The translations under genes and the position numbers were made by a program. From NCBI GenBank assembly GCA_043718025.1, contig JAYSWN010000069.1:3698-67697 (forward strand): a stretch of DNA of 64,000 nt. The letters run 5' to 3'. The notes beneath the pieces were generated by a model, which was not told where the DNA came from, ran no database searches, and was given only the letters and a program-made list of their open reading frames with translations. This stretch comes from Pseudomonadota bacterium (GTDB lineage Bacteria > Bdellovibrionota > FAC87 > UBA2466). Numbering within the stretch: position 1 is the stretch's first letter; each line of letters opens with the position of its first letter. Positions 2,837-56,795 of the stretch are shown one piece after another.

Positions 2837-4243
2837 TTAGACAGCTTTTTTGATCGGGTCCGTGGCCTCTTTACCAGCCTGACCCCGCCGAGTTTGGTAG
2901 GTGAGCTCTTCGCTGCCAAGCACCATACGGTCCGACCACTCCACACCTTGCATAAAAGAGTGATCTTGGTTGGACACTTCGTATTTCCACGCGCCAAAAC
3001 GGCCACGGCTATAAAGACCGTGTTTTTCCAACTCTGGCTGGACGCGGTTCAAAATCGAGTCACGCTCAAGCGATGGCACCGGGTATCCGTACGGCGCGCG
3101 AAATTGAAATTGGCTGACAATCTCATCGCGCGACGAGATTAGGCCGGTAGTGCGGCAACCTTCGATTGTTTCCTGGATCAAAGTGTTGGGGTCAACCGGT
3201 TTGTACTTCGATTCTGAAACCTCAAGCATCAAAGACCACTGGTTTTTAGGATCGGGAACGTTGTTCGGCGAATAGTGGGAAAAAACCGTAACCCGATAAA
3301 ACGGACAATTTGCTTCGGGAAAGTACATCCAGCATTTTTTGGAAAGAGCGGCGGGAATTTTCCCTTTAAGCCCCAGTCCAATCACATTCGTTGACGAATG
3401 AAAAAGCTGGTTCGCCATTTTAGTCACCTGTGGATCCAGCCCCTTCACCTTTTCGCAAAACTGGTCGAGCGGCATGGTGTTAAGCAGTTCGGTGTAACCA
3501 ATGGTGCGGCCATCTTTTAAAGAAACCAACTTGGCTTTTGGATCGATACCGGTAACCACCGAGCCGGTAAGAATGCGATCGCGCCCCACTCGATTCGCCA
3601 CGCTTTCCCAAATCGAACCGGTGCCGCCATTTTTTGGAAAATGAAACGTGTTGTTCGGGCCCCACGAGACGTCGGCCTTTTGCTGAATAATATTTCCCAA
3701 AATCCGTTTCACATCCGGAACGCTGACTCTTTGACCAATCCAGCCATAAGACATGAGTTCGGGCGGCGTGGCCCACACTTTAAAATTGTAGGGCAACATA
3801 AAAATATCGGCGACCCCTTGCCCGAAAGAGGCCAGAATCCATTCCCTAAAATTGGCCGGCTTTTCGGCGCCGGGCTTGATGGTAAGTAATGGCTCCACGC
3901 ACTTCCAGGTGTCTTCCTGAGGGAGGTAGCGCAAATTATTTTGGAACGGATAGGGCACAAAGCGATCTTTGACCCAAACCCAGCTCTCCCGTTCGTGGTG
4001 AAGCCATTCTTTCCGCGGAACGGCCGTTTCCATTGCCTCATCAAAGTAGGTGTAGTGCGAAAACTGGACGTGACCACCGATGTCCCACACAAACCCTTTC
4101 TTATCGGTAATGCTTTTTGCGAGGCCGCCGACCTGAGGATCACTTTCTAAAATCACAAAATCGGTGATGCCGTGGTCAAGTAGGCGAATGGCGGCGCCCA
4201 GGCCAGTGGGTCCGGCGCCGATGATTACGTAGTTTTTTTTCAT
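2837..4243 (-). CDS. glf: FAD-dependent UDP-galactopyranose mutase, eukaryote-type (long ~470-510 aa form)
   Basis: N-terminal Rossmann motif VIIGAGPTGLGAA. Blocks that I recall as conserved in Aspergillus/Leishmania UGM are present: DIGGHVQFSHYTYFDE, PYPFQNNL, MLPYNFKVWA, KCWMYFPEANCPFYRVTVFSHYSP and SRGRFGAWKYEVSNQDHSF. Confidence 0.75.
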   Translation of the reverse strand: MKKNYVIIGAGPTGLGAAIRLLDHGITDFVILESDPQVGGLAKSITDKKGFVWDIGGHVQFSHYTYFDEAMETAVPRKEWLHHERESWVWVKDRFVPYPFQNNLRYLPQEDTWKCVEPLLTIKPGAEKPANFREWILASFGQGVADIFMLPYNFKVWATPPELMSYGWIGQRVSVPDVKRILGNIIQQKADVSWGPNNTFHFPKNGGTGSIWESVANRVGRDRILTGSVVTGIDPKAKLVSLKDGRTIGYTELLNTMPLDQFCEKVKGLDPQVTKMANQLFHSSTNVIGLGLKGKIPAALSKKCWMYFPEANCPFYRVTVFSHYSPNNVPDPKNQWSLMLEVSESKYKPVDPNTLIQETIEGCRTTGLISSRDEIVSQFQFRAPYGYPVPSLERDSILNRVQPELEKHGLYSRGRFGAWKYEVSNQDHSFMQGVEWSDRMVLGSEELTYQTRRGQAGKEATDPIKKAV

Positions 4244-4256
4244 GAACAGGTTTCTG

Positions 4257-5045
4257 TTAGGCAGAGGCTTTTTCAGCCCGCTCGGTATTTTTAGGAATAG
4301 GGAGTTCCGCTAAATGCTTTTTCCACACCGGTGCAGCACGACGAAAGGCCCGAATCTCACTAAAGCACCGGTTGCACACATCGAACAGACGTCGGTTAAG
4401 GGTGACCACCCCGGTTCGGCGTTCCCGGTGTGAAACGGGCATTTCCAGAAGGGTGCCCTTCGACTTAGCGGCCAAGATCGATAAGAAAATGTTAGGAATA
4501 AATACCCCGCGCGGCACCAGCGTCAAAAGACCGGCAAGAAAACGAGACTGCATCAAGCGAAACGGCACATTGGCATCGCGAATTTCAGCGCCAAAAAATA
4601 CGAGCAATAAGACCGCATTGAGTCTTGAAATCACTATCCGCACCAAGGGGTCATGGCGCACTTGACGGTACCCGAGAATAAAAGGGGCTTCGTACCGGGC
4701 ATCCCACAGCTTGCCAAAATCTTCGTGGTTAAATTGATCGTCACTATCGGTTTGAAAAACAAACTCGGGCCCGAGTCGCAACGCCTGCTCGTAGCCATTT
4801 CGCACCGCCTTGCCGTGGCCGGCGTTCTCCTGATGAACCACTTTTAAGCGGTGTTCCTTACGCGCCATCGCGTTCAAGACTTCGGCGGTATTATCGCGGG
4901 AGCCATCGTTGACGATGAGAAGTATCCCGTCGTAGGCCGACGCCACGCTTAACCAAGCGCGGGCAACCTTCTCAATGCACGCCGCTTCGTTGTAGGCCGG
5001 CATGACGATCACTAGATTTGGCGCGTTATTTTCTTGAAGTTTCAT
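4257..5045 (-). CDS. Family 2 glycosyltransferase of the polyprenol-phosphate sugar synthase type (Dpm1/GtrB/ArnC-like)
   Basis: GT-A fold N-terminus: VIVMPAYNEA, then the DGSRD (DxD-like) motif and the QTDSDDQ acidic motif. It lies immediately upstream of glf in a probable two-gene operon. Confidence 0.8.
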   Translation of the reverse strand: MKLQENNAPNLVIVMPAYNEAACIEKVARAWLSVASAYDGILLIVNDGSRDNTAEVLNAMARKEHRLKVVHQENAGHGKAVRNGYEQALRLGPEFVFQTDSDDQFNHEDFGKLWDARYEAPFILGYRQVRHDPLVRIVISRLNAVLLLVFFGAEIRDANVPFRLMQSRFLAGLLTLVPRGVFIPNIFLSILAAKSKGTLLEMPVSHRERRTGVVTLNRRLFDVCNRCFSEIRAFRRAAPVWKKHLAELPIPKNTERAEKASA

Positions 5046-5141
5046 TACGTTTATCGCTCCGTAAAATCTCGTAACGTTCCTAAGTTTATTGCAGAAACAT
5101 TCCGTTAAGTAAGAAACGAACCTCGGTAAAATAAAACCCTT

Positions 5142-7112
5142 ATGCAGTCCTTAACTCCGCATTCCGAACTCCCTACAAATCCAGCGGCATCGTTGCTGAG
5201 ACCCAAGCAGGGGCTAAAAGCGCTTGCCCTATTGATTCTATTTTTGGGAATTGGATTGCGAAGTGTGAATCTTGGAGTTCGTCCGTTACACCACGACGAG
5301 TCAATCCATGCGACGTTCAGCGCTCAGTGGGCCGAATCTCCAGATCGATCATTCTACAAGTACGACCCCACGTATCACGGGCCGTTTTTATATTGTATCA
5401 CCCGTTGGATTTTTCCACTCGTTGGCATCGGCACCGCCGAGGCCCGGCTGTTTCCCCTTTTGTTTGGTCTCTTAAGCTTGTTCTCGTCGTTGCTATTCTG
5501 CCGCTGGATCGGCGTGGCGGGAGCGGCGGTAACCTTTTCACTTCTCGCACTCAGCCCACTGATGGTCTACTACTCACGCTTTCTTGCTCACGACATGCCG
5601 AGCCTCTTTTTTGCCTCGCTCATGGCTTACGGCGTTCTTCGATTCTACGATGGCGTCGCAAACAAAAATTTTCGTGAGGTTCGTAATGCATTTCTGCTGA
5701 CGGCGGTGGCGCTCGGAGTGCTCTTTTCAGTAAAGACCGTGGCCGTACTCTATGCGTTTATCTTTCTCACTTTTTTTGGCTTCGAACTGGCTTTACGTAA
5801 GTGGAGCCAACAAACTGCATTCTGGCCAATTGAGTGGAAAGCTTTTTCCCTCTGGGCAATGCCGGCCATCCTCGGCATTTTAAGCTTTTCAGTGGCATAC
5901 GGAATTTTTCAAACTTCATTCTTCAATAATCCGGCGGCCTTTTTCGACGGCATCCTCGGAAAAAATTTATCCTACTGGTGGAATCAGCATAAAATTGAAC
6001 GACTGGTGGGACCCACCACTTTTCACCTTAGAAGTTTACTGCTGCACGAATTCCCCGCGTGCTTGATCCTAAGCATCGCCCTATTCCGTATCACCCTGCG
6101 TTGGCGGCATGGAAAATGGGCGTTAGCGGCGCTATTCGTTCTTTTTTTGGCCACCGTACCTTTTTCTTGGAGTCTAGAGCGCGACCTTCCCGGCTTTTTG
6201 CTCTCTTTATTCAAAGCGGCAAAGATGAAATCGTCGCCCGCCATTTTTCTCTACTCAATGTGTTTTGTGTTTGGAATTTTGGGCAGCTATCAACTGTGGA
6301 AAGAAAAACGCTTGCCGACCGCATTTTTAAACTATTGGACCTTCGCTTCGCTAGCCATTTACAGTTACGCCGGCGAAAAAGCGCCTTGGCTTACTCTGCA
6401 CGTTGCCTTTCCGGCGGTACTATTGTGCGGAGGCCTCCTTTCTCAACGCTTCACCGAAATGGCCGCCGCATTTAGACTATCGTGGCGGCTTCCGCTCGCT
6501 AGGCGCGTTGTGGCCGCCTCCTTTTTACTTTTACTTCTGTACCAAACACGCCTGGCCTATTTCGTTTCGCACGTGACCGCGGGCAAACCTACCGATCTTT
6601 TAAGTCAGGTGCACAACAGCGAAGATGTAAATCGCGTTTTAAATTGGATGCAACGCGAAGCCTTTGAGTCTGGCGAAAAAAATGAAGGCCTCACCATCGC
6701 CCTTGCTGGCAATGTAACCTGGGCGTTCTATTTCAAGTTCATTGAATTTGGATTCAAAAAGTTCGTTCTCGACGCTAAACAGGTAACCGGCAACGAGCGC
6801 TTTATTGTTAGTGACGAAGAAAACTCCAAGGCACTATCGGCCAAACTAGAGCCGTTGGGTTACCAAAAGATCCAGTACACCCACTCCGGATGGTGGGTAC
6901 CCGAACATAGTAAAGTGGGCTGGGGTGATTGGGTTGAATATGCCCTGTTTCGAAAACCAACGGGGGCGGTGGGAACCACAAAAATGTTTGTTTTTCACAA
7001 GCCAGCCGTCCATCCGACGCTTGCGCCCGTTCCGGCCTCCTCCCCGGGGGTTACCACGATTACCGGCCCACTGCGCGACACGGCCGCCAAAACCGTTTTG
7101 CCCACAAAATGA
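5142..7112 (+). CDS. Polytopic membrane protein resembling GT-C glycosyltransferases (PMT_2/ArnT-like N-terminus; resembles the TIGR03663 family)
   Basis: More than ten predicted TM helices. The first periplasmic loop carries HHDESIHA (the DE dipeptide) and TYHGPFLY (the HGP tripeptide), the hallmarks I recall for TIGR03663. Its stop overlaps the start of the next gene (ATGA). Confidence 0.65.
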   Translation: MQSLTPHSELPTNPAASLLRPKQGLKALALLILFLGIGLRSVNLGVRPLHHDESIHATFSAQWAESPDRSFYKYDPTYHGPFLYCITRWIFPLVGIGTAEARLFPLLFGLLSLFSSLLFCRWIGVAGAAVTFSLLALSPLMVYYSRFLAHDMPSLFFASLMAYGVLRFYDGVANKNFREVRNAFLLTAVALGVLFSVKTVAVLYAFIFLTFFGFELALRKWSQQTAFWPIEWKAFSLWAMPAILGILSFSVAYGIFQTSFFNNPAAFFDGILGKNLSYWWNQHKIERLVGPTTFHLRSLLLHEFPACLILSIALFRITLRWRHGKWALAALFVLFLATVPFSWSLERDLPGFLLSLFKAAKMKSSPAIFLYSMCFVFGILGSYQLWKEKRLPTAFLNYWTFASLAIYSYAGEKAPWLTLHVAFPAVLLCGGLLSQRFTEMAAAFRLSWRLPLARRVVAASFLLLLLYQTRLAYFVSHVTAGKPTDLLSQVHNSEDVNRVLNWMQREAFESGEKNEGLTIALAGNVTWAFYFKFIEFGFKKFVLDAKQVTGNERFIVSDEENSKALSAKLEPLGYQKIQYTHSGWWVPEHSKVGWGDWVEYALFRKPTGAVGTTKMFVFHKPAVHPTLAPVPASSPGVTTITGPLRDTAAKTVLPTK

Positions 7113-9238
7113 ACGCCATTTTTCAACACCTCTTCGGCATTCTGGGTTGGTCGGCGTTATCGCTTATTTTTGGCGCCGCCTGGTTTCCCTTGTTTGCGGC
7201 ACGCCTCTCACCTGACTTAGCCTGGCCGCTGTGCCGGTTGAGTGCCACCATTCTAGTTACCAGCTTTCATCTGTGGCCTGCCTTTTTGGGACGCGTTGCG
7301 CTTACTCCCTGGATTACGCTAGCTATCGTGGCGGTCATCGCCATCGGCACTCATTCATTCACGCGAATAACCGTAAAAGAAAATCTAAAACGTTTTTTTT
7401 CGAAAGAGAATTTGCGGCACGAAGGCTTTATTCTTGGTGTTTGTTTTCTGTTTTTACTGATCGTGCTGTTCATCCCCAACGTCGCGAGCTCGGGCGAGCG
7501 ACTGCGCGATACCGGTTATTGGGTTGCGCTCAACACCCAGAAGAAATTTCCGCTCCTTGACCCCTGGCTATCCGGAGTGAGCGTTCCTTACTATCTGCTG
7601 GGATACTTGGCCGACTTGGAAGTGTTTCAATTTTTGCCGGTCTCAACCCTTATCCAATATAACTTAGGATTGATTGTCGCCCCCGCGCTCTACGCGTTTG
7701 CCTTACGCATGTTTTTTCGTTTGGTCTGGCCGGGCTCCAGGCTGGCCGGAGCGGCAGCGATGTGCCTACTGCTGGCCTGCAATTTTCGTAGCGTGGAGCA
7801 GGCCATCTCCCATATTTTTAGAAATGCCCCCTTTCAGTTCTGGGACTCTTCACGCGTTATTCCGGGAACGATCAACGAGTTCCCTCTCTGGACTGCTTCT
7901 TTGGGAGACTTACACGCCCATCTAATGAGTTTGTGGATTTTGCCAACCCTATTAGCGGTAGGAATCTACTTCCTATTCTTGAAACAGAAAGAAAGGGGAC
8001 TCCCTCAAGGTTTCTCCTTAGCTGAGCTAAGCATTTTTTCCTTTTTGACTTCGTGGTCCTACGGCATGAACACCTGGGAATTTCCGATTATCATTGCGGT
8101 GAGTCTTATTTCTATCGTGGGTAGCAGCCGTAATCAGGGTAAAAAACAGATCCTAAAATATTTGGCGTTCTTCGGGCTGGCCACGATGGTGCTTTGTCTA
8201 CCCTACGCCCTAACTTCGGCTAGCGGCCCCACCTCATTTTCATTCGTTAACCAAAGAACAAGCGCCTGGCCGATGTTTCAGGTCTTTGGTCTTTTCTTTA
8301 TCCCGCTCATGACTTTGAGCGCGAAAAGAGCCTACGACTCCGGAAAGAGAGAGTTGTTGGCGGCAATGGGACTGGCGGTGACTTTAATCTTCATTCTAGA
8401 CTCAGGGCTGGCCATGGTTACTACGGTTAGCTTCTTTCTCGGTACGACGCTTCTTTGGCGTCGGGAGAGTGAACGGATATTGGCGTTAATGGCCTACGGC
8501 GGGCTCTTACTCGTTGGATTTTGCGAGGTGGCCCACCTAAAAGATGCCTTCGGCGGTGATCTGGCCCGCATGAACACGGTGTTCAAATTTTACGTTCCCG
8601 CATTTACGTTGTTGGGAGTTTCGGCATTGCTGGCCTGGAAAGAGCTGCTGCCTTTATTTTCGACAACTCGGTTACAATGGTGCGCATTCGGCGGTTTAGC
8701 GTTTTGGTTAGTGGCCAGCAGTTCATATTTGGCCTTCGGATTGCGAAGCCGCACCAACGGTTTCCGGGTGCCGGCAAACTTCGATGGCTATGGCGAGCTG
8801 CGCAACTATTCCCCCGACGACGCCGTCGTGATCAACTGGATGGCCGAAGAAGTAAGACGGGGCGAGCTGAAGGGGACTTTGCTTGAGGTTATTGGCGGGG
8901 CCTACAGTTGGACCGGTCGGGCCGCCTCATTTACTGGTCTTGAAACGTACGCCGCGTGGGAAGGTTATAGCTACTGGTCTCACACCGGAAACGACGGTTT
9001 AATGCGAAGTCGCAGCAAAACAGCAAAAATGATTTTTGACGGCAGTTACTTCAACGCCGCGCCGTCCTGTGGCGATTTCACCGAAAAACTCCGCCAGTTG
9101 AAAATCAATTACGTCTTCGTGGGCAAAGAAATGAAGACTAACGTTGCTCCCTATACGAGAGATAAAATGGACACGTGCCTACTCCCTCTTCGGCGCCAAG
9201 GCATCGCCGCCCTGTACTCCGTTCCCGCGACCCGTTAA
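7109..9238 (+). CDS. Large polytopic membrane protein, 'YYY-domain' type (resembles TIGR03662/DUF2298), partner of the upstream GT-C-like protein
   Basis: 709 aa, highly hydrophobic with many TM segments. VPYYLLGY tyrosine motif, plus the conserved-looking INEFPLWTASLGDLHAHL loop. It is translationally coupled to the preceding gene. Confidence 0.55.
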   Translation: MNAIFQHLFGILGWSALSLIFGAAWFPLFAARLSPDLAWPLCRLSATILVTSFHLWPAFLGRVALTPWITLAIVAVIAIGTHSFTRITVKENLKRFFSKENLRHEGFILGVCFLFLLIVLFIPNVASSGERLRDTGYWVALNTQKKFPLLDPWLSGVSVPYYLLGYLADLEVFQFLPVSTLIQYNLGLIVAPALYAFALRMFFRLVWPGSRLAGAAAMCLLLACNFRSVEQAISHIFRNAPFQFWDSSRVIPGTINEFPLWTASLGDLHAHLMSLWILPTLLAVGIYFLFLKQKERGLPQGFSLAELSIFSFLTSWSYGMNTWEFPIIIAVSLISIVGSSRNQGKKQILKYLAFFGLATMVLCLPYALTSASGPTSFSFVNQRTSAWPMFQVFGLFFIPLMTLSAKRAYDSGKRELLAAMGLAVTLIFILDSGLAMVTTVSFFLGTTLLWRRESERILALMAYGGLLLVGFCEVAHLKDAFGGDLARMNTVFKFYVPAFTLLGVSALLAWKELLPLFSTTRLQWCAFGGLAFWLVASSSYLAFGLRSRTNGFRVPANFDGYGELRNYSPDDAVVINWMAEEVRRGELKGTLLEVIGGAYSWTGRAASFTGLETYAAWEGYSYWSHTGNDGLMRSRSKTAKMIFDGSYFNAAPSCGDFTEKLRQLKINYVFVGKEMKTNVAPYTRDKMDTCLLPLRRQGIAALYSVPATR

Positions 9239-9309
9239 GAAACGCCCCACTTTCTTCATTTAGCGCACTTGGCGCAGGAGCTATGACAAGGATAGAATAG
9301 AAAACCACC

Positions 9310-10659
9310 ATGCGATCTCTCATCAAGACAATAGCCGGTTGGGGTAACTTTCCTGCCTATCCGTGCCGCCTTTTTCGTGCCGAACGGCTTCGCGAACAAA
9401 AAGAGATTCTTTGCACTCCAAACGAAAGTTTCATCGCCCGCGGTTTGGGCCGGGCCTACGGCGATGCCGCCATCAATGCGGATCATGGCGTCGTACTGCA
9501 AGAACGCTTCAACCGTTTCCTTGCTTTTGATCAAGCCAGCGGAATGCTGGAATGTGAAGCCGGGGTTTCCTTTGAAGATCTGCTTCAAACTTTTGTGCCC
9601 CGTGGCTTTTTTCCGCCGACCACGCCGGGAACCAAGTTTATCACCGTGGGTGGCGCCGTTGCCGCCGACGTTCACGGCAAAAACCACCACTGCGATGGCA
9701 GTTTTTCCAAATCAGTTGATAGTTTTCGCTTGATGCTGGCCAATGGCGACGTAGTCACGGCGTCGCGCACCGACCATGCCGATCTCTTCTGGGCCACCAT
9801 CGGCGGCATGGGACTTACCGGGATTCTTACCTCGGTAAAATTTCGCCTGAGCAAAATCCCCTCCTCACGCCTCAATGTGCATTTTGAAAAAACCAAGAGC
9901 CTAGACGAAACATTGGCGCGTTTCACTACCACCGATGCGCAATTCGCCAATTCTGTGTGCTGGTTAGATACCGTGGCGTCCGGCAGCAAGCTGGGTCGAG
10001 CCGTGATGATGTTAGGAAATTTCGCCACGCCGGCTGAGTTGGGCGGAATGAAACGATTGAACGAAGTGTCTTTTTCAAAAAAGCGCAATGTTCCCTTTTT
10101 TCTTCCGGAGTTTGTTTTGAATTCGCTTAGCGTCAGCCTTTTTAACCGGGCTTACTACGCTCACTTTTCAAACGGCAGCAATAAAGTACAGACCATCGAC
10201 CAATACTTTTACCCGCTCGACGCGATCGACAACTGGAACCGTGGCTACGGCAAGTCGGGTTTTTTGCAATTTCAAGCGGTGTGGCCCAATGAGCAATCGG
10301 CCGCGGCACTGAAGAAGACCTTAGAAGAGATTCAGAAAGCGGGAGCCAACGCCTTTCTCGCGGTTTTAAAAACGATGGGGGCCAAGAGCGAAGGCATGCT
10401 GTCCTTTCCAATCGCTGGCCACACCTTAGCGCTCGACATTCCTTATCGCGGTAAAAAAACGGAAGCGTTGGCAAAACGTTTGAATGCCCTCACGTTAGAT
10501 TTTGGCGGAAGAGTTTATTTAGCTAAAGACGCTTTTCTTACCCGCGAGCAGACCCAGAAAATGTATCCCGACTTCGATAAGTTTTTAGCCGTGAAACACA
10601 AGTACGATCCTAACGGCCGCTTCGCCTCATCGCTTTCGAAAAGACTGGGTCTGGTGTAA
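9310..10659 (+). CDS. dprE1: Decaprenylphosphoryl-beta-D-ribose 2'-oxidase homologue (FAD-binding, DprE1 family)
   Basis: Matches my memory of M. tuberculosis DprE1 along its length: RGLGRAYGD, ITVGGAVAADVHGKNHHCDGSF, LFWATIGGMGLTGI, KLGRA, QYFYPLD..WNRGYG..GFLQFQ, LSFPIAG, LDFGGRVYLAKD, RFASSLSKRLGL. Confidence 0.85.
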   Translation: MRSLIKTIAGWGNFPAYPCRLFRAERLREQKEILCTPNESFIARGLGRAYGDAAINADHGVVLQERFNRFLAFDQASGMLECEAGVSFEDLLQTFVPRGFFPPTTPGTKFITVGGAVAADVHGKNHHCDGSFSKSVDSFRLMLANGDVVTASRTDHADLFWATIGGMGLTGILTSVKFRLSKIPSSRLNVHFEKTKSLDETLARFTTTDAQFANSVCWLDTVASGSKLGRAVMMLGNFATPAELGGMKRLNEVSFSKKRNVPFFLPEFVLNSLSVSLFNRAYYAHFSNGSNKVQTIDQYFYPLDAIDNWNRGYGKSGFLQFQAVWPNEQSAAALKKTLEEIQKAGANAFLAVLKTMGAKSEGMLSFPIAGHTLALDIPYRGKKTEALAKRLNALTLDFGGRVYLAKDAFLTREQTQKMYPDFDKFLAVKHKYDPNGRFASSLSKRLGLV

Positions 10660-11402
10660 TGGGAAACGATTCAAACTTTGTCATGGTGGTCGGCGCTACT
10701 TCGGGAATGGGCCAGGCCGTAGCACGAGCGTTTGCAGCCCAAAAGAGAAACCTTTTTTTGCTCGGCCGCGACATGCTTGCGCTCGAGACAATGGTAACGG
10801 ATCTCACTATACGATACGACGTCGTGGTGAAGGCGTTCTCCTTTGAAGCTACTGATTTCCAAGCCCACGGGGCACTACTAAATGACGAGCTCTTGGGGCA
10901 GGTTCAGGGCGCGGTACTTTGCCAAGGTTACCTTAATGATAACGCCGCCTCGCGTGTGGACTTTTTCGAATGGAAGACCACGCTCGACGTAAATTTCACG
11001 TCGGTGGTCTCCTGCCTTACGCCCATGGCCAATTTTTTTGAAAAGAGAAAAAGCGGGTTTCTCTGCGTAGTTGGCTCGGTGGCGGGGGTGCGCGGACGCC
11101 AAAGCAATTACGTATATGGTTCGGCTAAGGCCGCGGTTTCTATTTTTTTAGAGGGTCTCCGCCATCGGCTATTTAAGTCTAATGTTTCGGTCACCGAAAT
11201 ACGGCCCGGATTCGTCGACACCAGTATGACGTTTGGTATGCCCGGCCTATTCCTTGTGGCTTCACCGGAAAAAGTGGCCGCCGATATTTTGAAGGCCATC
11301 GAGAAAAAAAGCGCGGTTCGCTATACGCCCTTCTTTTGGTTGGGCATTTTAACGATCATCCGCTGCCTTCCCCGCTTCCTCTTCCACCGCTCAAAACTCT
11401 AA
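10659..11402 (+). CDS. dprE2: Decaprenylphosphoryl-2-keto-pentofuranose reductase homologue (SDR, DprE2 family)
   Basis: SDR Gly motif VVGATSGMGQAV and catalytic YGSAKAA. The C-terminal half aligns with Mtb DprE2 (NYVYGS.KA....F.EGL......V.V.EIRPG.V.T.M). The start overlaps the dprE1 stop (TAATG). Confidence 0.8.
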   Translation: MGNDSNFVMVVGATSGMGQAVARAFAAQKRNLFLLGRDMLALETMVTDLTIRYDVVVKAFSFEATDFQAHGALLNDELLGQVQGAVLCQGYLNDNAASRVDFFEWKTTLDVNFTSVVSCLTPMANFFEKRKSGFLCVVGSVAGVRGRQSNYVYGSAKAAVSIFLEGLRHRLFKSNVSVTEIRPGFVDTSMTFGMPGLFLVASPEKVAADILKAIEKKSAVRYTPFFWLGILTIIRCLPRFLFHRSKL

Positions 11403-11541: not shown

Positions 11542-12948
11542 TCACCCCATTATTCTGCGCAGCCACCCGAAGTTCTTTTCGTACGGAGGGTAACGAAGAG
11601 GCAGATCAAACCAGGTGGCGCGACTCAGCACACTCTTACGGTGAGAGAAAGTTTCGAAAGAAAACCAGCCGTGGTATCCACCCATGCCACTGGCGCCAAC
11701 GCCGCCGAAAGGCAAACGCGGGTTGCTCAAATGCACGAGAGTATCGTTCATGCAGCCGCCACCAAATGAAACAGAATTTACGGCCTTGGCCCGATGCTCA
11801 GGATTTGTGCCAAAATAATAAAATGCCAACGGCTTTTCGCGTTCGTTTACAAAACGAATAGCCTCGTCAAAATTCTCGTACTCGATCAACGGCAGGAGAG
11901 GACCAAAAATCTCTTCGGTCATCAATGGCATATCGAGGCGGGGTTGTCCGACGACCGTGGGCGAAATAAATCGCGCGCCCTTGTCGGTTTTTCCACCGAG
12001 CAAAATGTTTCCCTGTCCCAGCAACCCTTCTAAGCGCTGAAAGTGACGATCGGTGATGATGCGCGAGTACTCCGGGCTAGCTTGAATATCCGAAGTAAAA
12101 AACCGGTCTAGATTTGCCGAGATGCGTTCGACCACCCTTTTCTGCCAGCCCTTGGGGATGAGCAAATAGTCGGGCGCCACGCACGTCTGCCCGGCGTTAA
12201 AATACTTACCCCAGGTGATTCGTCGCATGGCGACGTCGAGATCGGCATCGGTATCTAAAAGGCAGGGGCTCTTTCCCCCCAGCTCCAAAGTCACCGGAGT
12301 TAAATGATTGGCCGCCGCCTGCATTACAATTTTTCCAACGTTGGTGCTGCCAGTATAAAAAATGTGATCCCAGCGTTCTTTGAGTAGCGCCGTCGAAATA
12401 TCCACCGCCCCCTCAATTGCCCACACAAATTCAGGATCGAACGTTTTTGCGATAATCTCGGCCACCACCTTCGATGTTTCCGGAGCCAACTCCGAGGGCT
12501 TCACCACCGCGCAGTTTCCGGCGCAAATGGCGCCCACCAGCGGCGCCATCGCCAACTGAAAAGGGTAATTCCAAGGAGAGATAATTAGAGTCGTGCCGAG
12601 TGGTTCGTAGTGAATGTGGCTTTTTCCCACCGCCAGGGTCATTGGCGTGGCCACCCGCTTGGGCTTCATCCAACTTTTTAGGTGTTTTTTGGTGAAGCGA
12701 ATCTCTTCGTACAGAAAACCCACCTCGCCCAAAAAACTCTCGGCCATCGACTTACCCAAGTCCGCTTTCAAAGCCTTAAAAATCTGCGGCTCCGCCGCCC
12801 GAATGGCGTGCATCAGCCTATCGAGCTGGGCCATGCGAAACTCGTAAGATTTGGTCTTCTGACTTAGGAAAAAGGCACGCTGTTTAGCGAGCCTCTCAGG
12901 AATCGAATTTGCCGTTACCATGCTGACCTCACGAAAAGATGATACCAC
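11542..12948 (-). CDS. NAD(P)-dependent aldehyde dehydrogenase (class 3-like)
   Basis: ALDH motifs ELGGKSP, EEIFGP and the catalytic-Cys region GQTCVAPDY. 468 aa. Confidence 0.9.
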   Translation of the reverse strand: MVSSFREVSMVTANSIPERLAKQRAFFLSQKTKSYEFRMAQLDRLMHAIRAAEPQIFKALKADLGKSMAESFLGEVGFLYEEIRFTKKHLKSWMKPKRVATPMTLAVGKSHIHYEPLGTTLIISPWNYPFQLAMAPLVGAICAGNCAVVKPSELAPETSKVVAEIIAKTFDPEFVWAIEGAVDISTALLKERWDHIFYTGSTNVGKIVMQAAANHLTPVTLELGGKSPCLLDTDADLDVAMRRITWGKYFNAGQTCVAPDYLLIPKGWQKRVVERISANLDRFFTSDIQASPEYSRIITDRHFQRLEGLLGQGNILLGGKTDKGARFISPTVVGQPRLDMPLMTEEIFGPLLPLIEYENFDEAIRFVNEREKPLAFYYFGTNPEHRAKAVNSVSFGGGCMNDTLVHLSNPRLPFGGVGASGMGGYHGWFSFETFSHRKSVLSRATWFDLPLRYPPYEKNFGWLRRIMG

Positions 12949-13007
12949 CCTAACCGGCTTGCGGAGCCCTTGTTTTAGCCCCAGGTTTAGGCTAAAAACG
13001 CCCCACT

Positions 13008-13982
13008 ATGGCAGACAAAACTATCTCTAAGTTCATTGAGCACCATTTCCGACATTTCAACGCTGCGGCGTTGGTTGATGCCGCAAAGGGGTACCAAAAG
13101 CATTTAGACGCCGGCGGCACCATGTTTATGACCTTAGCGGGGGCCATGAGCACCGGGGAGTTGGGTCTGTCGCTGGCCGAGATGATTCGCAAAGGAAAAG
13201 TGCACGCCATTTGTTGCACCGGCGCGAACCTAGAAGAGGATGTTTTTAACCTCGTCGCCCATAAATCTTACAAACGCATTCCTCATTACCGCGACCTCAC
13301 GCCGGCCGATGAAACCGAGTTGTTAAGCCATCATTTAAATAGGGTAACCGACACCTGTATTCCCGAAGAAGAGGCGATTCGCAAACTTGAGCACGTCATC
13401 ATTGAAGAGTGGACCAACGCCTCTGAAAGGGGTGAGCGGTATTTACCGCACGAGTACTTCTACAAGGTCTTGCTTTCGGGAAAACTAAAGTCCGAATACG
13501 AAATTGACCCGGCTAACAGCTGGATGCTGGCCGCCGCCGAACGTAATTTGCCAATCATTGTTCCGGGCTGGGAAGACTCAACGTTAGGAAACATTTTTGC
13601 GGCGCGCTGCATGGAAGGCAAACTCAAGGTCAATGCCATGAAATCAGGCATTGAGTACATGATGCAGATGTCAGCCTATTACTTAGAAAACTGCCGTAAG
13701 GGCAAAGGCATCGGTTTTTTTCAAATTGGTGGCGGCATCGCCGGCGATTTTCCGATCTGCGTGGTGCCGATGCTGAATCAAGATCTGCTTAAAGACGTGC
13801 CGGTATGGGCGTACTTTTGCCAAATTAGCGACTCGACCACGAGCTACGGCTCTTACTCGGGCGCGGTGCCCAATGAAAAGATTACCTGGGGCAAGCTCGA
13901 CATCGACACCCCAAAATTTATCATTGAATCGGATGCGTCCATCGTTGCGCCCTTGATCTTTGCCCATGTGTTGGGATGGTAG
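13008..13982 (+). CDS. Deoxyhypusine synthase-like protein (DHS/homospermidine-synthase family)
   Basis: The C-terminal block IGGGIAGDFPI...SYGSYSGAVPNEKITWGKLDID...ESDASIVAPLIFA aligns with the human DHPS segment GGGVVKHHI...DGSDSGARPDEAVSWGKIR...ADASLVFPLLVA. Confidence 0.8.
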   Translation: MADKTISKFIEHHFRHFNAAALVDAAKGYQKHLDAGGTMFMTLAGAMSTGELGLSLAEMIRKGKVHAICCTGANLEEDVFNLVAHKSYKRIPHYRDLTPADETELLSHHLNRVTDTCIPEEEAIRKLEHVIIEEWTNASERGERYLPHEYFYKVLLSGKLKSEYEIDPANSWMLAAAERNLPIIVPGWEDSTLGNIFAARCMEGKLKVNAMKSGIEYMMQMSAYYLENCRKGKGIGFFQIGGGIAGDFPICVVPMLNQDLLKDVPVWAYFCQISDSTTSYGSYSGAVPNEKITWGKLDIDTPKFIIESDASIVAPLIFAHVLGW

Positions 13983-14779
13983 GCCCGGCCCTAGTAGTAA
14001 AAGACCTCATTAAACATTATAAGGGGCGCCAAAAAGTAGAGGCGGTAAATGGCGTTTCGTTTACGGTTAACCCTGGCCAATGCTTTGGGCTTTTGGGTCC
14101 AAATGGCGCCGGTAAATCTACCACCATCAATTGCCTCATCGGCTTTTTTCCGCCCACGTCGGGCTCGGTGCAGGTGATGGGATTCGATGTTCATCACGAA
14201 CCCAAAAAAGCACGACAGCTTTTGGGCGTTTGCCCGCAAGAAGACACCCTAGATACTGACTTTACGGTGCGCGATCAGCTGATCCGTCATGCCACTTTTT
14301 TCCGGATGCCCGCCGCCGACGCCAAACGCCGCGCCGACGAGCTACTTGAGCGATTCGGCCTCAGCGGTAAGGGTAAGGAGTTGGTCGAACGGCTCTCCGG
14401 TGGAATGCGCCGCCGCCTACAAGTGGCGCGGGCATTAATCTCCAGCCCAAAAGTTCTAGTGCTGGATGAACCTACCACCGGCCTAGATCCCGACGCCCGT
14501 CGCACGTTGTGGGACATTTTAGAAGAGTACCGCGCCAAGGGGCTCGCGATCTTACTTACCACCCATTACATGGAAGAGGCCGAGCGCCTCTGCGATCGCA
14601 TTGCCTTGATTAAAGACGGAAAAATTTTAGACGAAAACTCGCCGCGCGCCCTGATCGACAGGCACGTCGCCAAAGAGTGGGTTGAAGAGGAGATCCGCCC
14701 CGGCGTCAAATGGAAACGCCCCGCAAACCTCGAAGACGTCTATTTAACCATTACCGGCAGTAAACTGGCGGAGGCATAA
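13976..14779 (+). CDS. ABC transporter ATP-binding protein (ABC-2 exporter type)
   Basis: Walker A GPNGAGKST, signature LSGGMRRRLQ, Walker B VLVLDEPTTGLD. Overlaps the DHS-like gene by 7 bp. Confidence 0.9.
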   Translation: MVGPALVVKDLIKHYKGRQKVEAVNGVSFTVNPGQCFGLLGPNGAGKSTTINCLIGFFPPTSGSVQVMGFDVHHEPKKARQLLGVCPQEDTLDTDFTVRDQLIRHATFFRMPAADAKRRADELLERFGLSGKGKELVERLSGGMRRRLQVARALISSPKVLVLDEPTTGLDPDARRTLWDILEEYRAKGLAILLTTHYMEEAERLCDRIALIKDGKILDENSPRALIDRHVAKEWVEEEIRPGVKWKRPANLEDVYLTITGSKLAEA

Positions 14780-14781
14780 AA

Positions 14782-15552
14782 ATGGGCGACACTTTTTGGG
14801 CCATTCGGTGCGTGTACTTTCGCTACCTGGCGGTCTTCCGTAAAAATGTTTTATACAGTTTGATGACCACCATCGTGGAACCCCTGCTCTATGTCCTCTC
14901 GTTCGGCTTTGGTCTAGCCACCATGATTCATGAAGTGGGTGTCGGAGACAAAACCATCGGCTACCGCGCCTTTGTGCTCTCGGGCTTCGTCGGCCAGAGC
15001 GTACTTTTTCAGGGTTTTTTCGAGGCGGCCTACGGCGGCTTTGTGCGCATGTACTACCAAAAGATTTTTAAAGCCATGGCCACGACGCCGGTGACGATCG
15101 AAGAGGTCTTGTGGGGAGAGTTAACCTGGGACGCCACTAAGGGTACTCTATCCGCCGGCATGGTTTTGCTCATTGGCAGCCTGCTCGGCGATTTTTCTCC
15201 GTGGGGCGCCGTCGTGCTCTTTCCCCTGTGCTACATTTTTTGCTTTATCTTTGCCGGTCTTGGCCTTTGGGTGTCGTCGCTAGCCACCACGATTGATCAA
15301 CTGGCGTACCCGCAATACCTTTTTGTTTTTCCCATGTTCCTATTCGGCGGTGTTTACTTCCCCATCGATAAGCTGCCCTCATTCGTAAGCAAAGCGGCGT
15401 GGTTTCTCCCGCTTACGCCTTGCTTAGAGATCACGCGAGGACTGCTCTTTGAGGTTTCCATCGCCTGGTATGCCTGGGTGCTGGTGGCCTTTTGGGCCGT
15501 ACTGCTACCTGTCACCTCACACGCGGCGATGAAACGCCGGCTAGTGAAGTAG
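14782..15552 (+). CDS. ABC-2 family transporter permease
   Basis: Six hydrophobic segments. Immediately downstream of the ABC ATPase. Confidence 0.7.
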   Translation: MGDTFWAIRCVYFRYLAVFRKNVLYSLMTTIVEPLLYVLSFGFGLATMIHEVGVGDKTIGYRAFVLSGFVGQSVLFQGFFEAAYGGFVRMYYQKIFKAMATTPVTIEEVLWGELTWDATKGTLSAGMVLLIGSLLGDFSPWGAVVLFPLCYIFCFIFAGLGLWVSSLATTIDQLAYPQYLFVFPMFLFGGVYFPIDKLPSFVSKAAWFLPLTPCLEITRGLLFEVSIAWYAWVLVAFWAVLLPVTSHAAMKRRLVK

Positions 15553-42273: not shown

Positions 42274-44376
42274 ATGGGAGATTTTATGGCTCAACGCTTT
42301 GCATCTTTTTTTGTTTTCACCCTTCTTAGCTTGCCCCTCGCCTTCAGCGCCGTTGAGGATCCGAACCAGTGGTTAGAAGAGATCGAATCGCCTCAGGCGT
42401 TGGATTGGGCACGGGCGCATAACGACAAGACCATCCCTTTTCTTACCGGACTTTCGATTCACCAACAGATCGAGCCCGAGATTCGCAAAATTGTTCTCGC
42501 CACCGATCGCATTCCCTCGCCGACGCTGATGGGAAATTTTGTTTACAATTTTTGGCAAGATACCAAAAATGTTCGTGGCCTCTGGCGACGGGCCACCCTA
42601 GAAAGTTACTCGACTGCCCAGATTTCTTGGGAAACGGTTCTCGATCTGGACGCCTTAGCCTCGGCAGAAAAAGAGAACTGGGTCTGGAAAGGGGCCGATT
42701 GCTTGGCGCCCCATTATCAGAAATGTTTACTCCAGCTCTCTAACGGTGGAAAAGACGCGGTGACCGTACGCGAATGGGACACGCAAGCGAAGGCCTTTGT
42801 GGCCGGCGGCTTTACGCTGGCCGAAGCCAAATCACGGGTGGCTTGGCTGGACAACGAAACCTTGCTCTTAGGAACTGATTTTGGCCCGGGTAGCCTAACT
42901 CTCTCCGGATACCCACGTGTAGTAAAAGCGTGGAAACGCGGCACCAAATTGGAAACCGCCACCACTTTGTACGAAGGTAAAACCGATGACATGATGGTCA
43001 ACGCCCAAACGTTTCACGGCGTAAACGGCGCCTTCGCTTTTATTTCTCGCCGCGTCGCCTTCTTCGAGCAGGAACTTTTTCGCGTTGGTGAGCAGAATAA
43101 AATCACGCCCCTGCCCCTTCCTCTAGACGTCGAGATTCATGGAGTTGTCGAAGGGCGCCTGTTGTTCAGCAACAAGAAGGTTATTGGGCGCGGAAAACAG
43201 AGTTACGTGGCCGGTTCATTGCTAGCTTTACCGCTCACCAAAATGAAACCCGACGCTGCGTTTGAAGTTCTCTACGCGCCAACGGCACACACTTCAGTTA
43301 GTCAGGTGACTATCACCGGTCAGACAGTGCTCGTGAACCTTCTCGATGACGTGAAGGGAAAGCTCATTCGCTTGCAAAGGGGTACTCAGCGGTGGAAAGC
43401 GCAGAACGTTGCTTTCCCGCTGGATGGCACTTTAAACGTCGTTGCCGCCGACGAGGTCTCTGAAAATGCTTTCGTCAGCTACGAAAGTTTTCTTACGCCG
43501 CCATCGCTTTACTTACTCGTCAAGCAGGAGCCGACGCTCACCAAACAGCTGCCGGCACGTTTCGAGGCCAGCGCCTTTGAAACCAAGCAGCAATGGGCGA
43601 AGAGTAAAGACGGGGTTAACGTTCCCTATTTCGTAGTTCAAAAAAAGGGGCTCAAGCTCGACGGCAGCCATCCAACGTTGCTGTACGGATACGGTGGTTT
43701 TCTACTAGCCCAAAAACCAAGTTATCTCTCGGCCACCGGAAAGGTGTGGCTAGAGCGCGGAGGCGTTTACGCCTTAGCTAACATAAGAGGCGGCAATGAA
43801 TTTGGCCCGGGCTGGCACCAAGCCGCGTTAAGAGAAAAGCGGCAAAGTGCATTCAATGATTTCATCGCGGTGGCCGAAGATTTGATTGCGAAGAAAATAA
43901 CGTCACCGGCGAAGTTGGGCATTCGCGGCGGAAGCAACGGCGGCTTGCTGATGGGGGCCATGCTTACCCAACGCCCGGAACTATTCGGCGCCATAGTTTG
44001 CCAAGTGCCGTTGCTCGACATGCTGCGATTTCATAAGCTGCTGGCCGGTCATAGCTGGACCGCCGAGTACGGAAACCCCGATAACGCAAAAGACGCTGAG
44101 TACATAGCCAAATACTCACCGTACCAAAATGTAAAAGCCGGGGTGAAGTACCCAAAAATGTTCGTGCTCACGTCGACCAAAGACGATCGCGTGCATCCGG
44201 GGCACGCCAGAAAAATGGTGGCAAAGCTAGAAACTCTAAGCCAACCCGTTCTATATTACGAAAACATTGAGGGTGGTCACGGCGGGGCGGCAAACTTAGA
44301 GCAGACCATTCGCAATACCGCTCTGTACTTTAGTTACCTGTGGGATCAGTTGGGTACCGTCAACTCGGTGAAGTGA
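42274..44376 (+). CDS. Prolyl oligopeptidase family serine peptidase (S9)
   Basis: Signal peptide, an N-terminal beta-propeller region, and the C-terminal GGSNGGLLMGA nucleophile with Asp/His downstream. Confidence 0.85.
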   Translation: MGDFMAQRFASFFVFTLLSLPLAFSAVEDPNQWLEEIESPQALDWARAHNDKTIPFLTGLSIHQQIEPEIRKIVLATDRIPSPTLMGNFVYNFWQDTKNVRGLWRRATLESYSTAQISWETVLDLDALASAEKENWVWKGADCLAPHYQKCLLQLSNGGKDAVTVREWDTQAKAFVAGGFTLAEAKSRVAWLDNETLLLGTDFGPGSLTLSGYPRVVKAWKRGTKLETATTLYEGKTDDMMVNAQTFHGVNGAFAFISRRVAFFEQELFRVGEQNKITPLPLPLDVEIHGVVEGRLLFSNKKVIGRGKQSYVAGSLLALPLTKMKPDAAFEVLYAPTAHTSVSQVTITGQTVLVNLLDDVKGKLIRLQRGTQRWKAQNVAFPLDGTLNVVAADEVSENAFVSYESFLTPPSLYLLVKQEPTLTKQLPARFEASAFETKQQWAKSKDGVNVPYFVVQKKGLKLDGSHPTLLYGYGGFLLAQKPSYLSATGKVWLERGGVYALANIRGGNEFGPGWHQAALREKRQSAFNDFIAVAEDLIAKKITSPAKLGIRGGSNGGLLMGAMLTQRPELFGAIVCQVPLLDMLRFHKLLAGHSWTAEYGNPDNAKDAEYIAKYSPYQNVKAGVKYPKMFVLTSTKDDRVHPGHARKMVAKLETLSQPVLYYENIEGGHGGAANLEQTIRNTALYFSYLWDQLGTVNSVK

Positions 44377-56695: not shown

Positions 56696-56795
56696 AACCG
56701 GCGTTTTCCCGGCGCGCAAAATGTCACCCATTTTGCCCTTCAAACCAAAACCCCAAAATGGTAAACCCCTGCCCCAAAGCAATAGGGGAATACTG

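Follow-up and report, generated by a model that had tools for sequence, protein, structure and literature searches.

The mycobacterial decaprenyl-P-arabinose pathway and arabinogalactan cluster comprise the UbiA-type enzyme Rv3806c, DprE1/E2, AftA/Emb, Glf and GlfT1/2, and the cluster also carries an ABC-2 exporter. In three-component glycosylation (GtrA/GtrB/Gtr*) a lipid-monophosphate sugar donor of cytoplasmic origin is flipped and then serves an extracytoplasmic GT-C enzyme. The pentofuranose version described by Kelly et al. 2024 consists of PPPRS, a MATE flippase and a GT136 GT-C enzyme, with DprE1/E2 for arabinofuranose (Araf) (PMC11127046). Pilin is the acceptor in the arabinosylation system of Pseudomonas aeruginosa Pa5196, where TfpW is accompanied by homologues of DprE1/E2 and UbiA (bioRxiv 10.1101/2020.04.19.049825). 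For Haloarcula hispanica, PMC11182771 describes Agl23, a member of the TIGR03663 family, as a hexose-P-dolichol flippase that is the partner of the GT2 Agl22 on this lipid, is linked to glucose- or galactose-P-dolichol and flips lipid-linked oligosaccharide in vitro.

The locus described here lies in a 64-kb stretch of DNA, hereafter the window, from an uncultured Gram-negative bacterium; Mla genes and an outer-membrane-like protein, which are hallmarks of such organisms, are encoded upstream. An earlier note on this DNA had reported six adjacent genes, all of which were confirmed in position and strand, and its six family assignments hold in profile and homologue comparisons. The minus strand encodes a eukaryote-type UDP-galactopyranose mutase (UGM; 2837..4243, 468 aa), the predicted supplier of UDP-galactofuranose, and a GT2 of the polyisoprenyl-phosphate glycosyltransferase class (4257..5045, 262 aa), a predicted polyprenyl-P-galactofuranose synthase. 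A divergent intergenic region of 96 bp (5046..5141) follows, presumably a shared promoter region, in which a promoter scan gave no signal above shuffled expectation. On the plus strand are the genes for a TIGR03663 (Agl23-family) GT-C-fold membrane protein (5142..7112, 656 aa), predicted to flip the GT2 product, to transfer its sugar, or both, and for a DUF2298/Chlor_Arch_YYY GT-C-fold membrane protein (7109..9238, 709 aa; the YYY protein), a predicted extracytoplasmic furanosyltransferase. They are followed on the same strand by a DprE1-like FAD oxidase (9310..10659, 449 aa), predicted to act as polyprenyl-P-ribofuranose 2'-oxidase, and a DprE2-like short-chain dehydrogenase (10659..11402, 247 aa), the predicted 2'-keto reductase finishing the epimerisation to arabinofuranose. 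Translational coupling is found inside each pair, as the GT-C and YYY genes overlap by 4 nt (ATGA, 7109-7112) and those of DprE1 and DprE2 by 1 nt (TAATG, 10657-10661). The YYY and DprE1 genes are 71 bp apart, so that the plus strand forms an overlapping operon, as had been proposed, only within each pair.

The assignment of the 2837..4243 product as UGM and not as a generic amine oxidase is clear: it scores 482 bits against the Trypanosoma cruzi enzyme (4dsg; E 2e-143, residues 5-451) and 459 bits against that of Aspergillus fumigatus, versus about 28 bits against amine oxidases. Orthologues occupy the equivalent position in loci L007, L009, L095 and L175. The GT2 (PF00535) lacks a transmembrane helix. 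A profile built from 10 of its orthologues gave full-length matches only to ArnC (1e-27), GtrB (5ekp, 2e-23) and DPMS (5mlz, 3e-19) and did not match GlfT2, and the DxDxQ hallmark of polyprenyl-phosphate GT2 enzymes (PMC10821137) is invariant as D100-S-D102-D-Q104; by these sequence features the GT2 is placed in the DPMS/GtrB/ArnC polyprenyl-phosphate class. Of 11 orthologous loci, 10 have its gene in divergent orientation to that of the GT-C protein, and UGM directly adjoins the GT2 gene in the same direction in nearly all loci.

For both membrane proteins the GT-C nature suggested by the earlier note is borne out by structure prediction. The 5142..7112 product exceeds the TIGR03663 cut-off of 126 with 242 bits and carries the motifs HHDE (50-53) and HGP (79-81), of which H50, H51, D52, E53, H79 and G80 are, together with R47 and P48, invariant in 20 orthologues. 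Its AlphaFold2 model (pLDDT 80, pTM 0.84) finds only GT-C proteins as best Foldseek PDB matches, with ArnT first (E 2e-8), followed by AglB, Pmt4, STT3, ALG12/9, AftA and AftD. The 7109..9238 product matches PF10060 with 208 bits and stays just below the TIGR03662 cut-off (281 versus 300); its motif is PYYLLGY, hence YY rather than YYY, and among Foldseek matches of its predicted GT-C fold AftA ranks first. The earlier view that no function was known for either family no longer holds for TIGR03663 in view of Agl23, as described in PMC11182771.

The module of UGM and GT2 divergent from TIGR03663 and YYY genes is found again in uncultured lineages far removed from that of the window. TIGR03663 loci with flanks of 10 kb or more number 21; of these, 16 contain YYY, nine UGM and eight a window-like GT2. 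Locus L164 repeats the divergent layout of UGM-GT2 and YYY-GTC at about 34% identity for the GT-C protein and 45% for UGM. The position of the eukaryote-type UGM is taken in L091 and L174 by a bacterial-type GLF (PF03275); this ties the module to the mutase activity and to no particular gene, and supports a polyprenyl-P-galactofuranose route. The proposal that UGM and a Dpm1-type GT2 provide a lipid-linked furanose for GT-C proteins is thereby strengthened; the four genes probably make a lipid-linked galactofuranose (Galf) donor which is used outside the cytoplasm.

It is unlikely that the GT2 instead loads another sugar, such as Galp or Glc, for the Agl23-like/YYY pair, while UGM serves a separate cytoplasmic galactofuranosyltransferase that adds Galf to the acceptor glycan in the classical way, as for an arabinogalactan-like polymer. 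Such a division of labour would agree with the ABC-2 exporter found in relatives, as in the mycobacterial arabinogalactan cluster. To our knowledge all characterised galactofuranosyltransferases take UDP-Galf directly, and in the literature searched this classical route is the sole one described for Galf; neither a lipid-linked Galf donor nor a polyprenyl-P-galactofuranose route was found there. In L173, moreover, GT2 and GT-C genes are divergent with no UGM in the usual place; the GT2 sugar thus need not always be Galf, and PMC11182771 ties Agl23 to glucose- or galactose-P-dolichol. Against this stand the lack of a second cytoplasmic glycosyltransferase for UDP-Galf in the window locus, the close co-directional association of UGM with the GT2, the replacement by another UGM family at exactly this position, and the GT2 itself, with its polyprenyl-phosphate hallmarks and no match to GlfT2.

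DprE1 and DprE2 match their homologues; both score below the cut-offs of the dedicated models. DprE1 reaches 290 bits against M. smegmatis DprE1 (4aut) and 429 bits against NF053785 (cut-off 500). It keeps all eight Mtb residues checked (Y60, H132, K134, W230, Q334, Q336, K367 and K418), which we take to represent the pocket. The catalytic and substrate-pocket residues checked are the same as in UbiA-linked homologues, and at only 10 out of 101 conserved positions does the window's lineage depart from them; judged by its sequence, DprE1 thus looks canonical. Cys387 is replaced by Ala, as in 49 of 60 UbiA-linked homologues, and because this Cys is the target of benzothiazinones, the sensitivity test once suggested would be uninformative. 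DprE2, an SDR, matches Mtb DprE2 (21gq chain C) over its full length and scores 139.5 bits against NF053786 (cut-off 250) and 257 bits against PRK07102 (267).

In distant phyla a DprE2 homologue (29-48% identity) adjoins DprE1 in 70 of 80 loci and a UbiA-type phosphoribosyltransferase is nearby in 69, which fixes the usual source of the DprE1 substrate; the four-gene module is found in none of the 80. The window encodes no UbiA-family protein, as had been noted for the locus, nor any other phosphoribosyltransferase, 5'-phosphatase or recognised flippase (GtrA, MATE, Wzx). The earlier note had suggested that mutase and GT2 replace the phosphoribosyltransferase in a single linear pathway, in which their polyprenyl-P-furanose is epimerised at C2 by DprE1/E2, for example to talofuranose, before transfer by the GT-C proteins. 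UbiA is also missing from the flanks of L007, L009 and L010, and throughout the window's lineage DprE1/E2 lie near a polyprenyl-phosphate-type GT2 (of window type in the window, L007 and L009, GtrB/PgfS-like in L010), both of which would suit this pathway. We nevertheless consider it very unlikely. Outside the window's lineage none of 82 loci combines DprE1/E2 with the module, so that the core does without them in all the other lineages sampled. At C4 the configuration of the Galf ring is opposite to that of D-ribofuranose, and this ring would fit poorly into a DprE1 pocket unchanged from that of UbiA-linked enzymes. Related modules carry the phosphoribosyltransferase themselves: in L175 it follows YYY (342 bits with an HMM of DprE1-linked UbiAs), and seven L116-type loci have a UbiA-GT2-UGM operon beside YYY-GTC. 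Finally, 11 of the 80 ordinary DprE1/E2 loci likewise lack an adjacent UbiA, and its local absence therefore says little about the genome.

The presence of UbiA beside the module elsewhere, together with a canonical-looking, typically UbiA-paired DprE1/E2, makes two parallel donors, Galf and Araf, the likeliest picture, and DprE1/E2 probably form a second branch rather than acting further along the first. Across the loci compared, the six genes fall into two parts: the core reaches distant lineages and DprE1/E2 accompany it only in the window's own, where they adjoin it in the window, L007 and L009; joining L092 and L010, contigs of different assemblies, suggests a fourth such arrangement. The arrangement is kept in relatives and is thus no chance juxtaposition. 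Much of the adjacency of DprE1, however, stems from relatives that are syntenic over the region as a whole (HPRT ... aldehyde dehydrogenase, DS), and it may therefore be inherited and not selected. It is rather improbable that the two parts are unrelated neighbours, the Galf module working as proposed and DprE1/E2 supplying polyprenyl-P-Araf to GT-C enzymes encoded elsewhere, possibly in concert with the ABC-2 exporter that adjoins them in relatives. In favour of that view, DprE1/E2 form a unit of their own, divergent from an ABC-2 transporter pair, in L007, L009 and L010, and L009 has them with UGM-GT2 on a contig from which GT-C and YYY are absent; a promoter-like site also just precedes DprE1 (9269-9298), though the frequency of such matches does not exceed that in shuffled sequence. 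On the other side, genes for pentofuranose donors lie by the core in three distinct ways, as DprE1/E2 in the window, as UbiA in L175 and as a UbiA-GT2-UGM operon in the L116 type, for which drift alone hardly accounts, and the window shows no GT-C candidate besides the TIGR03663 and YYY proteins.

We thus regard the locus, with about even confidence for and against, as encoding a single system for extracytoplasmic furanosylation that has two branches. In the first, UGM would convert UDP-Galp to UDP-Galf, and the soluble Dpm1/ArnC-class GT2 would transfer Galf to polyprenyl phosphate. The TIGR03663 protein would carry the resulting polyprenyl-P-Galf across the inner membrane to its outer face, use it there, or do both, and the YYY protein would transfer the furanose to a putative envelope acceptor. 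In the second branch, restricted to this lineage, DprE1 and DprE2 would turn polyprenyl-P-ribofuranose into polyprenyl-P-arabinofuranose by oxidation and then reduction at C2'. The ribofuranose lipid would come from a UbiA-type phosphoribosyltransferase encoded outside the window, and the Araf donor may be consumed by one of the two GT-C proteins.

Compared with the mycobacterial pathway, the locus has a close DprE1 homologue with conserved catalytic residues, a DprE2 partner, predicted GT-C consumers and a UGM in the same neighbourhood. It differs by the missing UbiA and phosphatase, by a GT2 of the Dpm1/ArnC class instead of GlfT, by Ala for Cys387, by GT-C proteins that share only the fold with the mycobacterial ones (8-12% identity) and by the Gram-negative hallmarks of the organism. 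Pa5196 also has DprE1/E2 homologues in a Gram-negative bacterium, where they feed a GT-C protein with D-Araf; its system has a UbiA-type enzyme and neither UGM nor GT2, TfpW comes from another family of GT-C proteins, and there is no sign of a pilin acceptor at the window locus. With three-component systems the locus would share a lipid-monophosphate donor, cytoplasmic synthesis, flipping and extracytoplasmic GT-C use; it has two GT-C proteins, from the TIGR03663 and DUF2298 families, and no flippase of the GtrA, MATE or Wzx type. Furanose donors and DprE1/E2 as auxiliary epimerases in Gram-negative bacteria would be common to it and the system of Kelly et al. 2024, where DprE1/E2 already occur together with GT-C partners (PMC11127046). 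The donor synthase is here a GT2 and not a UbiA-type phosphoribosyltransferase, and its pairing with UGM implies a hexofuranose (Galf) donor. The pairing of a hexose-P-polyprenol GT2 with a TIGR03663-family membrane protein resembles Agl22/Agl23 (Lu et al. 2020, cited in PMC11182771), a likeness drawn through the TIGR03663 model and the published description. In contrast to that archaeal pair, the bacterial proteins are accompanied by UGM, implying Galf, and by a translationally coupled YYY protein, and where Agl23 is described as a flippase, the invariant HHDE/HGP motifs and predicted GT-C fold of the window protein are also compatible with a transferase role.

The six open reading frames described in the earlier note lie exactly at the positions given there, as a check of the ORFs in the window showed, and the family calls made for them (UGM, GT2, TIGR03663, DUF2298, DprE1-like and DprE2-like) hold in HMM searches and structure-sequence comparisons. 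The UGM gene (2837-4243) and the GT2 gene are located on the minus strand. A 96-bp spacer separates the GT2 gene from the divergent GT-C gene (TIGR03663, 5142-7112), which overlaps the YYY gene (DUF2298, 7109-9238) by 4 nt (ATGA). After a gap of 71 bp (9239-9309) follow the genes for the DprE1-like protein (9310-10659) and the DprE2-like SDR (10659-11402), which overlap in TAATG. Promoter and terminator scans were no more informative than those of shuffled sequence, and no tRNA genes, rRNA or Rfam matches were found in the 64-kb window. Upstream of the locus, Mla genes and a protein resembling outer-membrane proteins indicate a Gram-negative host.

The best-supported reading, based on comparative genomics and predicted structures, is a model with two branches. 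In branch A the UGM would provide UDP-Galf, from which the GT2 would form polyprenyl-P-Galf for the TIGR03663 and YYY GT-C proteins; this branch, the core of four genes, is a conserved module. Branch B would be the canonical DprE1/DprE2 conversion of polyprenyl-P-Ribf to polyprenyl-P-Araf, attached to the core in the window lineage, with its phosphoribosyltransferase predicted to be encoded outside the window.

The UGM product matches solved eukaryotic UGMs over its full length, with 482 bits for the T. cruzi enzyme (4dsg, residues 5-451) and 459 bits for that of A. fumigatus. The best amine oxidase reaches 28 bits and aligns to the N-terminal FAD motif only, which settles the question, raised in the earlier note, of a generic amine oxidase in favour of UGM. 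Judged by its sequence the protein is a genuine eukaryote-type UGM, and mutase activity on UDP-Galp is predicted. It is here encoded by a bacterial genome, and in more distant relatives this slot holds the classical Glf of bacteria (L091 2367-3680, L174 423-1613).

The GT2 belongs to PF00535 (61.5 bits). Ten orthologues carry, without variation, its DxDxQ motif (D100-S-D102-D-Q104), which has been put forward as characteristic of polyisoprenyl-phosphate glycosyltransferases (PMC10821137). A profile of these 10 sequences aligns over positions 4-243 of 259 with ArnC (1e-27), GtrB (2e-23) and the Pyrococcus DPMS (3e-19). With other GT2s the match is limited to the nucleotide-binding half, roughly the first 100 residues, and no match to GlfT2 was obtained at E <= 0.01. 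Because full-length alignment is confined to polyprenyl-phosphate transferases and GlfT2 is not matched, a GlfT-type galactofuranosyltransferase in an arabinogalactan-like scheme was rejected as the main model. A crude hydrophobicity scan revealed no C-terminal transmembrane hairpin of the GtrB/ArnC subtype, the protein ending at residue 262. Mycobacterial PpgS and Ppm1 are likewise devoid of such a hairpin, and the GT2 appears to fit this TM-less type and not the GtrB subtype.

Both orphan membrane proteins are GT-C-fold proteins according to confident AlphaFold2 models built from homologue alignments (TIGR03663 protein: pLDDT 80, pTM 0.84; YYY: pLDDT 88, pTM 0.90). The TIGR03663 protein scores 241.9 bits against the NCBIfam cut-off of 126.25, and its model finds structural matches in ArnT, AglB, PMTs, STT3, ALG9/12, AftA and AftD. 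The motifs RP-HHDE and HG, directly after the first predicted transmembrane helix, are invariant in 20 orthologues, at the place where GT-C enzymes have their catalytic acidic motif. The YYY protein is well above the gathering score of PF10060 (207.6 versus 27.8 bits) and below the cut-off of TIGR03662 (280.9 versus 300.25 bits). The YYYxG motif is not found, the window protein reading PYYLLGY versus the family consensus NYYYFGH, and the protein is a divergent member of DUF2298/TIGR03662. Its nearest homologues are 24-29% identical and occur in unrelated gene contexts; YYY was then dropped as a synteny anchor, and DprE1 and TIGR03663 were used.

The role of the TIGR03663 protein may be that of a flippase or a transferase. 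Agl23 of H. hispanica, the characterised member of this family, is described in PMC11182771 as a hexose-P-dolichol flippase whose partner is the GT2 Agl22; a lipid-linked oligosaccharide is reported to be flipped by it in vitro. Within the locus no GtrA, MATE or Wzx protein was recognised as a dedicated small flippase, and this role may be filled by the Agl23-family protein (PMC11182771). A transferase role would also fit, since the acidic motif does not vary and distant homologues have an NHL propeller fused to them. Such C-terminal NHL/SGL beta-propellers are present in L116 (9869-12484), a soil contig, and in the proteins P0261, P0267, P0268, P0270, P0275 and P0277, and the YYY proteins of L116 and L164 are about 1,600 aa long. 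Both features suggest periplasmic acceptor-binding domains. The papers searched contain nothing relevant on the function of DUF2298, nor do they treat any role of Agl23-family proteins in bacteria.

A scan for TIGR03663 gave 82 metagenome loci, 21 of them flanked by 10 kb or more. Annotation was HMM-based; clustering of neighbours was polluted by shadow ORFs in the high-GC metagenome contigs. YYY, encoded next to TIGR03663 in the window, is also present in 16 of the 21 long-flank loci, UGM in nine, a window-like GT2 in eight and a UbiA phosphoribosyltransferase in five, while DprE1 was found in none. The divergent layout recurs as UGM-GT2 <> YYY-GTC in L164, at about 34% GT-C identity. In L091 and L174 a Glf of family PF03275 replaces the eukaryote-type UGM at the same position. 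No other single observation argues as strongly for a functional tie between mutase activity and the GT2/GT-C pair as this non-orthologous replacement. Outside the window lineage the core repeatedly adjoins a UbiA-type phosphoribosyltransferase. L175, with a GT-C protein 45% identical to that of the window, has UGM-GT2 <> GTC-YYY followed by a convergent operon that pairs another YYY paralogue with a UbiA; the HMM of DprE1-linked UbiAs gives the latter 342 bits. In seven L116-type soil contigs a UbiA-GT2-UGM operon adjoins YYY-GTC. With DprE1/DprE2 in the window lineage and UbiA in these two cases, there are thus three arrangements which bring a gene for pentofuranose lipids to the same core.

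The DprE1-like product aligns with M. smegmatis DprE1 at 290 bits and contains FAD_binding_4 (PF01565) and ALO (PF04030) domains, and the DprE2-like SDR matches Mtb DprE2 over the full length. Both proteins remain under the equivalog cut-offs, DprE1 with 429.4 versus 500 bits (NF053785) and DprE2 with 139.5 versus 250 bits (NF053786, its second-best named model), but these matches and the pairing of the two genes support the earlier calls. We assume that both models are tuned to Actinobacteria. When 60 UbiA-linked homologues were aligned with M. smegmatis DprE1 and five proteins from the window lineage, Y60, H132, K134, W230, Q334, Q336, K367 and K418 (Mtb numbering) proved to be all conserved in the window protein; this list of catalytic and pocket residues follows the Mtb DprE1 structures. 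The window lineage differs at 10 of 101 strongly conserved positions, mostly conservatively and at no known catalytic residue. An altered specificity was therefore rejected, and nothing in the sequence suggests a new substrate. Cys387 of Mtb DprE1, the covalent target of benzothiazinones, is not known to be required for catalysis. It corresponds to Ala374 in the window protein and to Ala in 49 of the 60 UbiA-linked homologues, so that Ala prevails among homologues outside Actinobacteria, and therefore benzothiazinones should not act on the window DprE1, for which intrinsic insensitivity is predicted.

DprE1 loci of distant origin were also collected, 80 in total from genomes of many phyla. DprE2 is next to DprE1 in 70 of them, and 69 contain a UbiA-type enzyme, confirmed as PF01040 and decaprenyl-phosphate phosphoribosyltransferase; some also hold GtrA and HAD genes. 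None of the 80 contains the window-type UGM, GT2, TIGR03663 or YYY. Across the 64 kb of the window an HMM built from 56 DprE1-adjacent UbiAs gave no match (best E 0.11), nor did a search with DprE1-adjacent UbiAs find one in L007, L009 and L010, loci of close relatives. Another reading, close to the route proposed in the earlier note, is that the lineage lacks a phosphoribosyltransferase altogether and that all six genes act in a single pathway: the GT2 would make a polyprenyl-P-furanose from a UDP-furanose and DprE1/DprE2 would epimerise it at C2, giving polyprenyl-P-talofuranose or a PRPP-independent polyprenyl-P-arabinofuranose to be transferred by both orphan GT-C families. Such a route to lipid-linked furanoses would be new, and its product might be a sugar new to bacteria. 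We consider this reading improbable, because no other instance of the module includes DprE1/DprE2, the pocket of DprE1 shows no change, and an adjacent UbiA is also missing in 11 of the 80 ordinary DprE1 loci. Epimerisation of the GT2 product is thus disfavoured, and the model with a Galf and a separate Araf branch is preferred.

An HPRT-like phosphoribosyltransferase gene is located at 1122-1664 on the minus strand, about 8 kb upstream of DprE1. In L013 (~7842), L015 (~16) and L018 (~6392), labelled as two Hydrogenedentota and one unclassified bacterium, a similar gene precedes DprE1 by about 2 kb. This nearness may be a coincidence or a link through PRPP.

In the close relatives (L007, L009 and L092/L010) DprE1 is 61-73% identical. 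L007 contains UGM-GT2 <> GTC-YYY, an inserted divergent ABC-2 exporter pair and DprE1-DprE2. The L009 contig lacks GT-C and YYY and encodes UGM-GT2, DUF1761 and the ABC-2 pair <> DprE1-DprE2. The third layout, read from two contigs of different assemblies with shared gene content (L092 and L010), comprises GT2 <> GTC-YYY, an orphan polytopic protein, a GtrB-like GT2 and the ABC-2 pair <> DprE1-DprE2. Neighbouring housekeeping genes are also syntenic, and therefore adjacency in close relatives alone is weak evidence.

The ABC-2 pair (ABC2_membrane and ABC_tran) is divergent from DprE1 in L007 (5561-6990), L009 (7283-8709) and L010 (1661-3123), and may serve there either to flip the donor or to export a glycan; in the window the 71-bp gap at 9239-9309 takes its position. 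Two orphan polytopic membrane proteins follow GT-C/YYY, one of 419 aa (L092 5037-6296, L010 2-652) and one of about 485 aa (L091 6351-7808, L174 4293-5747). They match no Pfam or NCBIfam model and resemble neither each other nor anything in the window, and may be further transferases or polymerases. The second GT2, which is GtrB/PgfS-like (270 bits to PgfS, 160 to ArnC), is encoded on the minus strand between the module and ABC-2/DprE1 in one sub-lineage (L010 573-1622, L092 6280-6822), and suggests a further lipid-linked sugar donor there.

Downstream of the locus (11542-15552) are genes for an aldehyde dehydrogenase, a deoxyhypusine/homospermidine-synthase-like protein and a second ABC-2 transporter pair. 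Their order is kept in L010 (5609-9723) at 69-81% identity, and they may constitute a polyamine-related unit unconnected to the furanose genes. The region 17000-64000 encodes many small signal-peptide proteins, secreted peptidases of the S9 (42274-44376) and trypsin-like (56721-58292) types and a 943-aa orphan (21882-24713).

The interest of these results lies mainly in a concrete, testable prediction, derived wholly from comparative genomics and predicted structures. The conserved combination of UGM, a Dpm1-type GT2 and GT-C proteins predicts a lipid-linked Galf donor and extracytoplasmic galactofuranosylation, and would add a branch to what is known of Galf biology. To our knowledge all characterised galactofuranosyltransferases draw directly on UDP-Galf, in the cytoplasm or the Golgi; the papers searched describe only this UDP-Galf route and contain no lipid-linked Galf donor. 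DUF2298, a large orphan membrane family of Chloroflexota, haloarchaea and many uncultured bacteria, would gain a testable function from its predicted GT-C fold and from the company of furanose-donor genes. The Agl23 family, currently discussed as flippases, is placed in a bacterial setting which is open to a simple genetic test.

The older parallels of the locus are the pilin arabinosylation of P. aeruginosa and the mycobacterial pathway. The canonical polyprenyl-P-arabinose pathway (PPPRS, a phosphatase and DprE1/DprE2) includes a UbiA-type enzyme, whereas the window locus contains no UbiA. Hexofuranose and pentofuranose donor genes paired around two GT-C proteins are not covered in the papers searched. 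Three-component extracytoplasmic pentofuranosylation with DprE1/DprE2 for Araf was described for Gram-negative bacteria in 2024 (PMC11127046), and the locus would add to these systems an arrangement that combines hexofuranose with pentofuranose.
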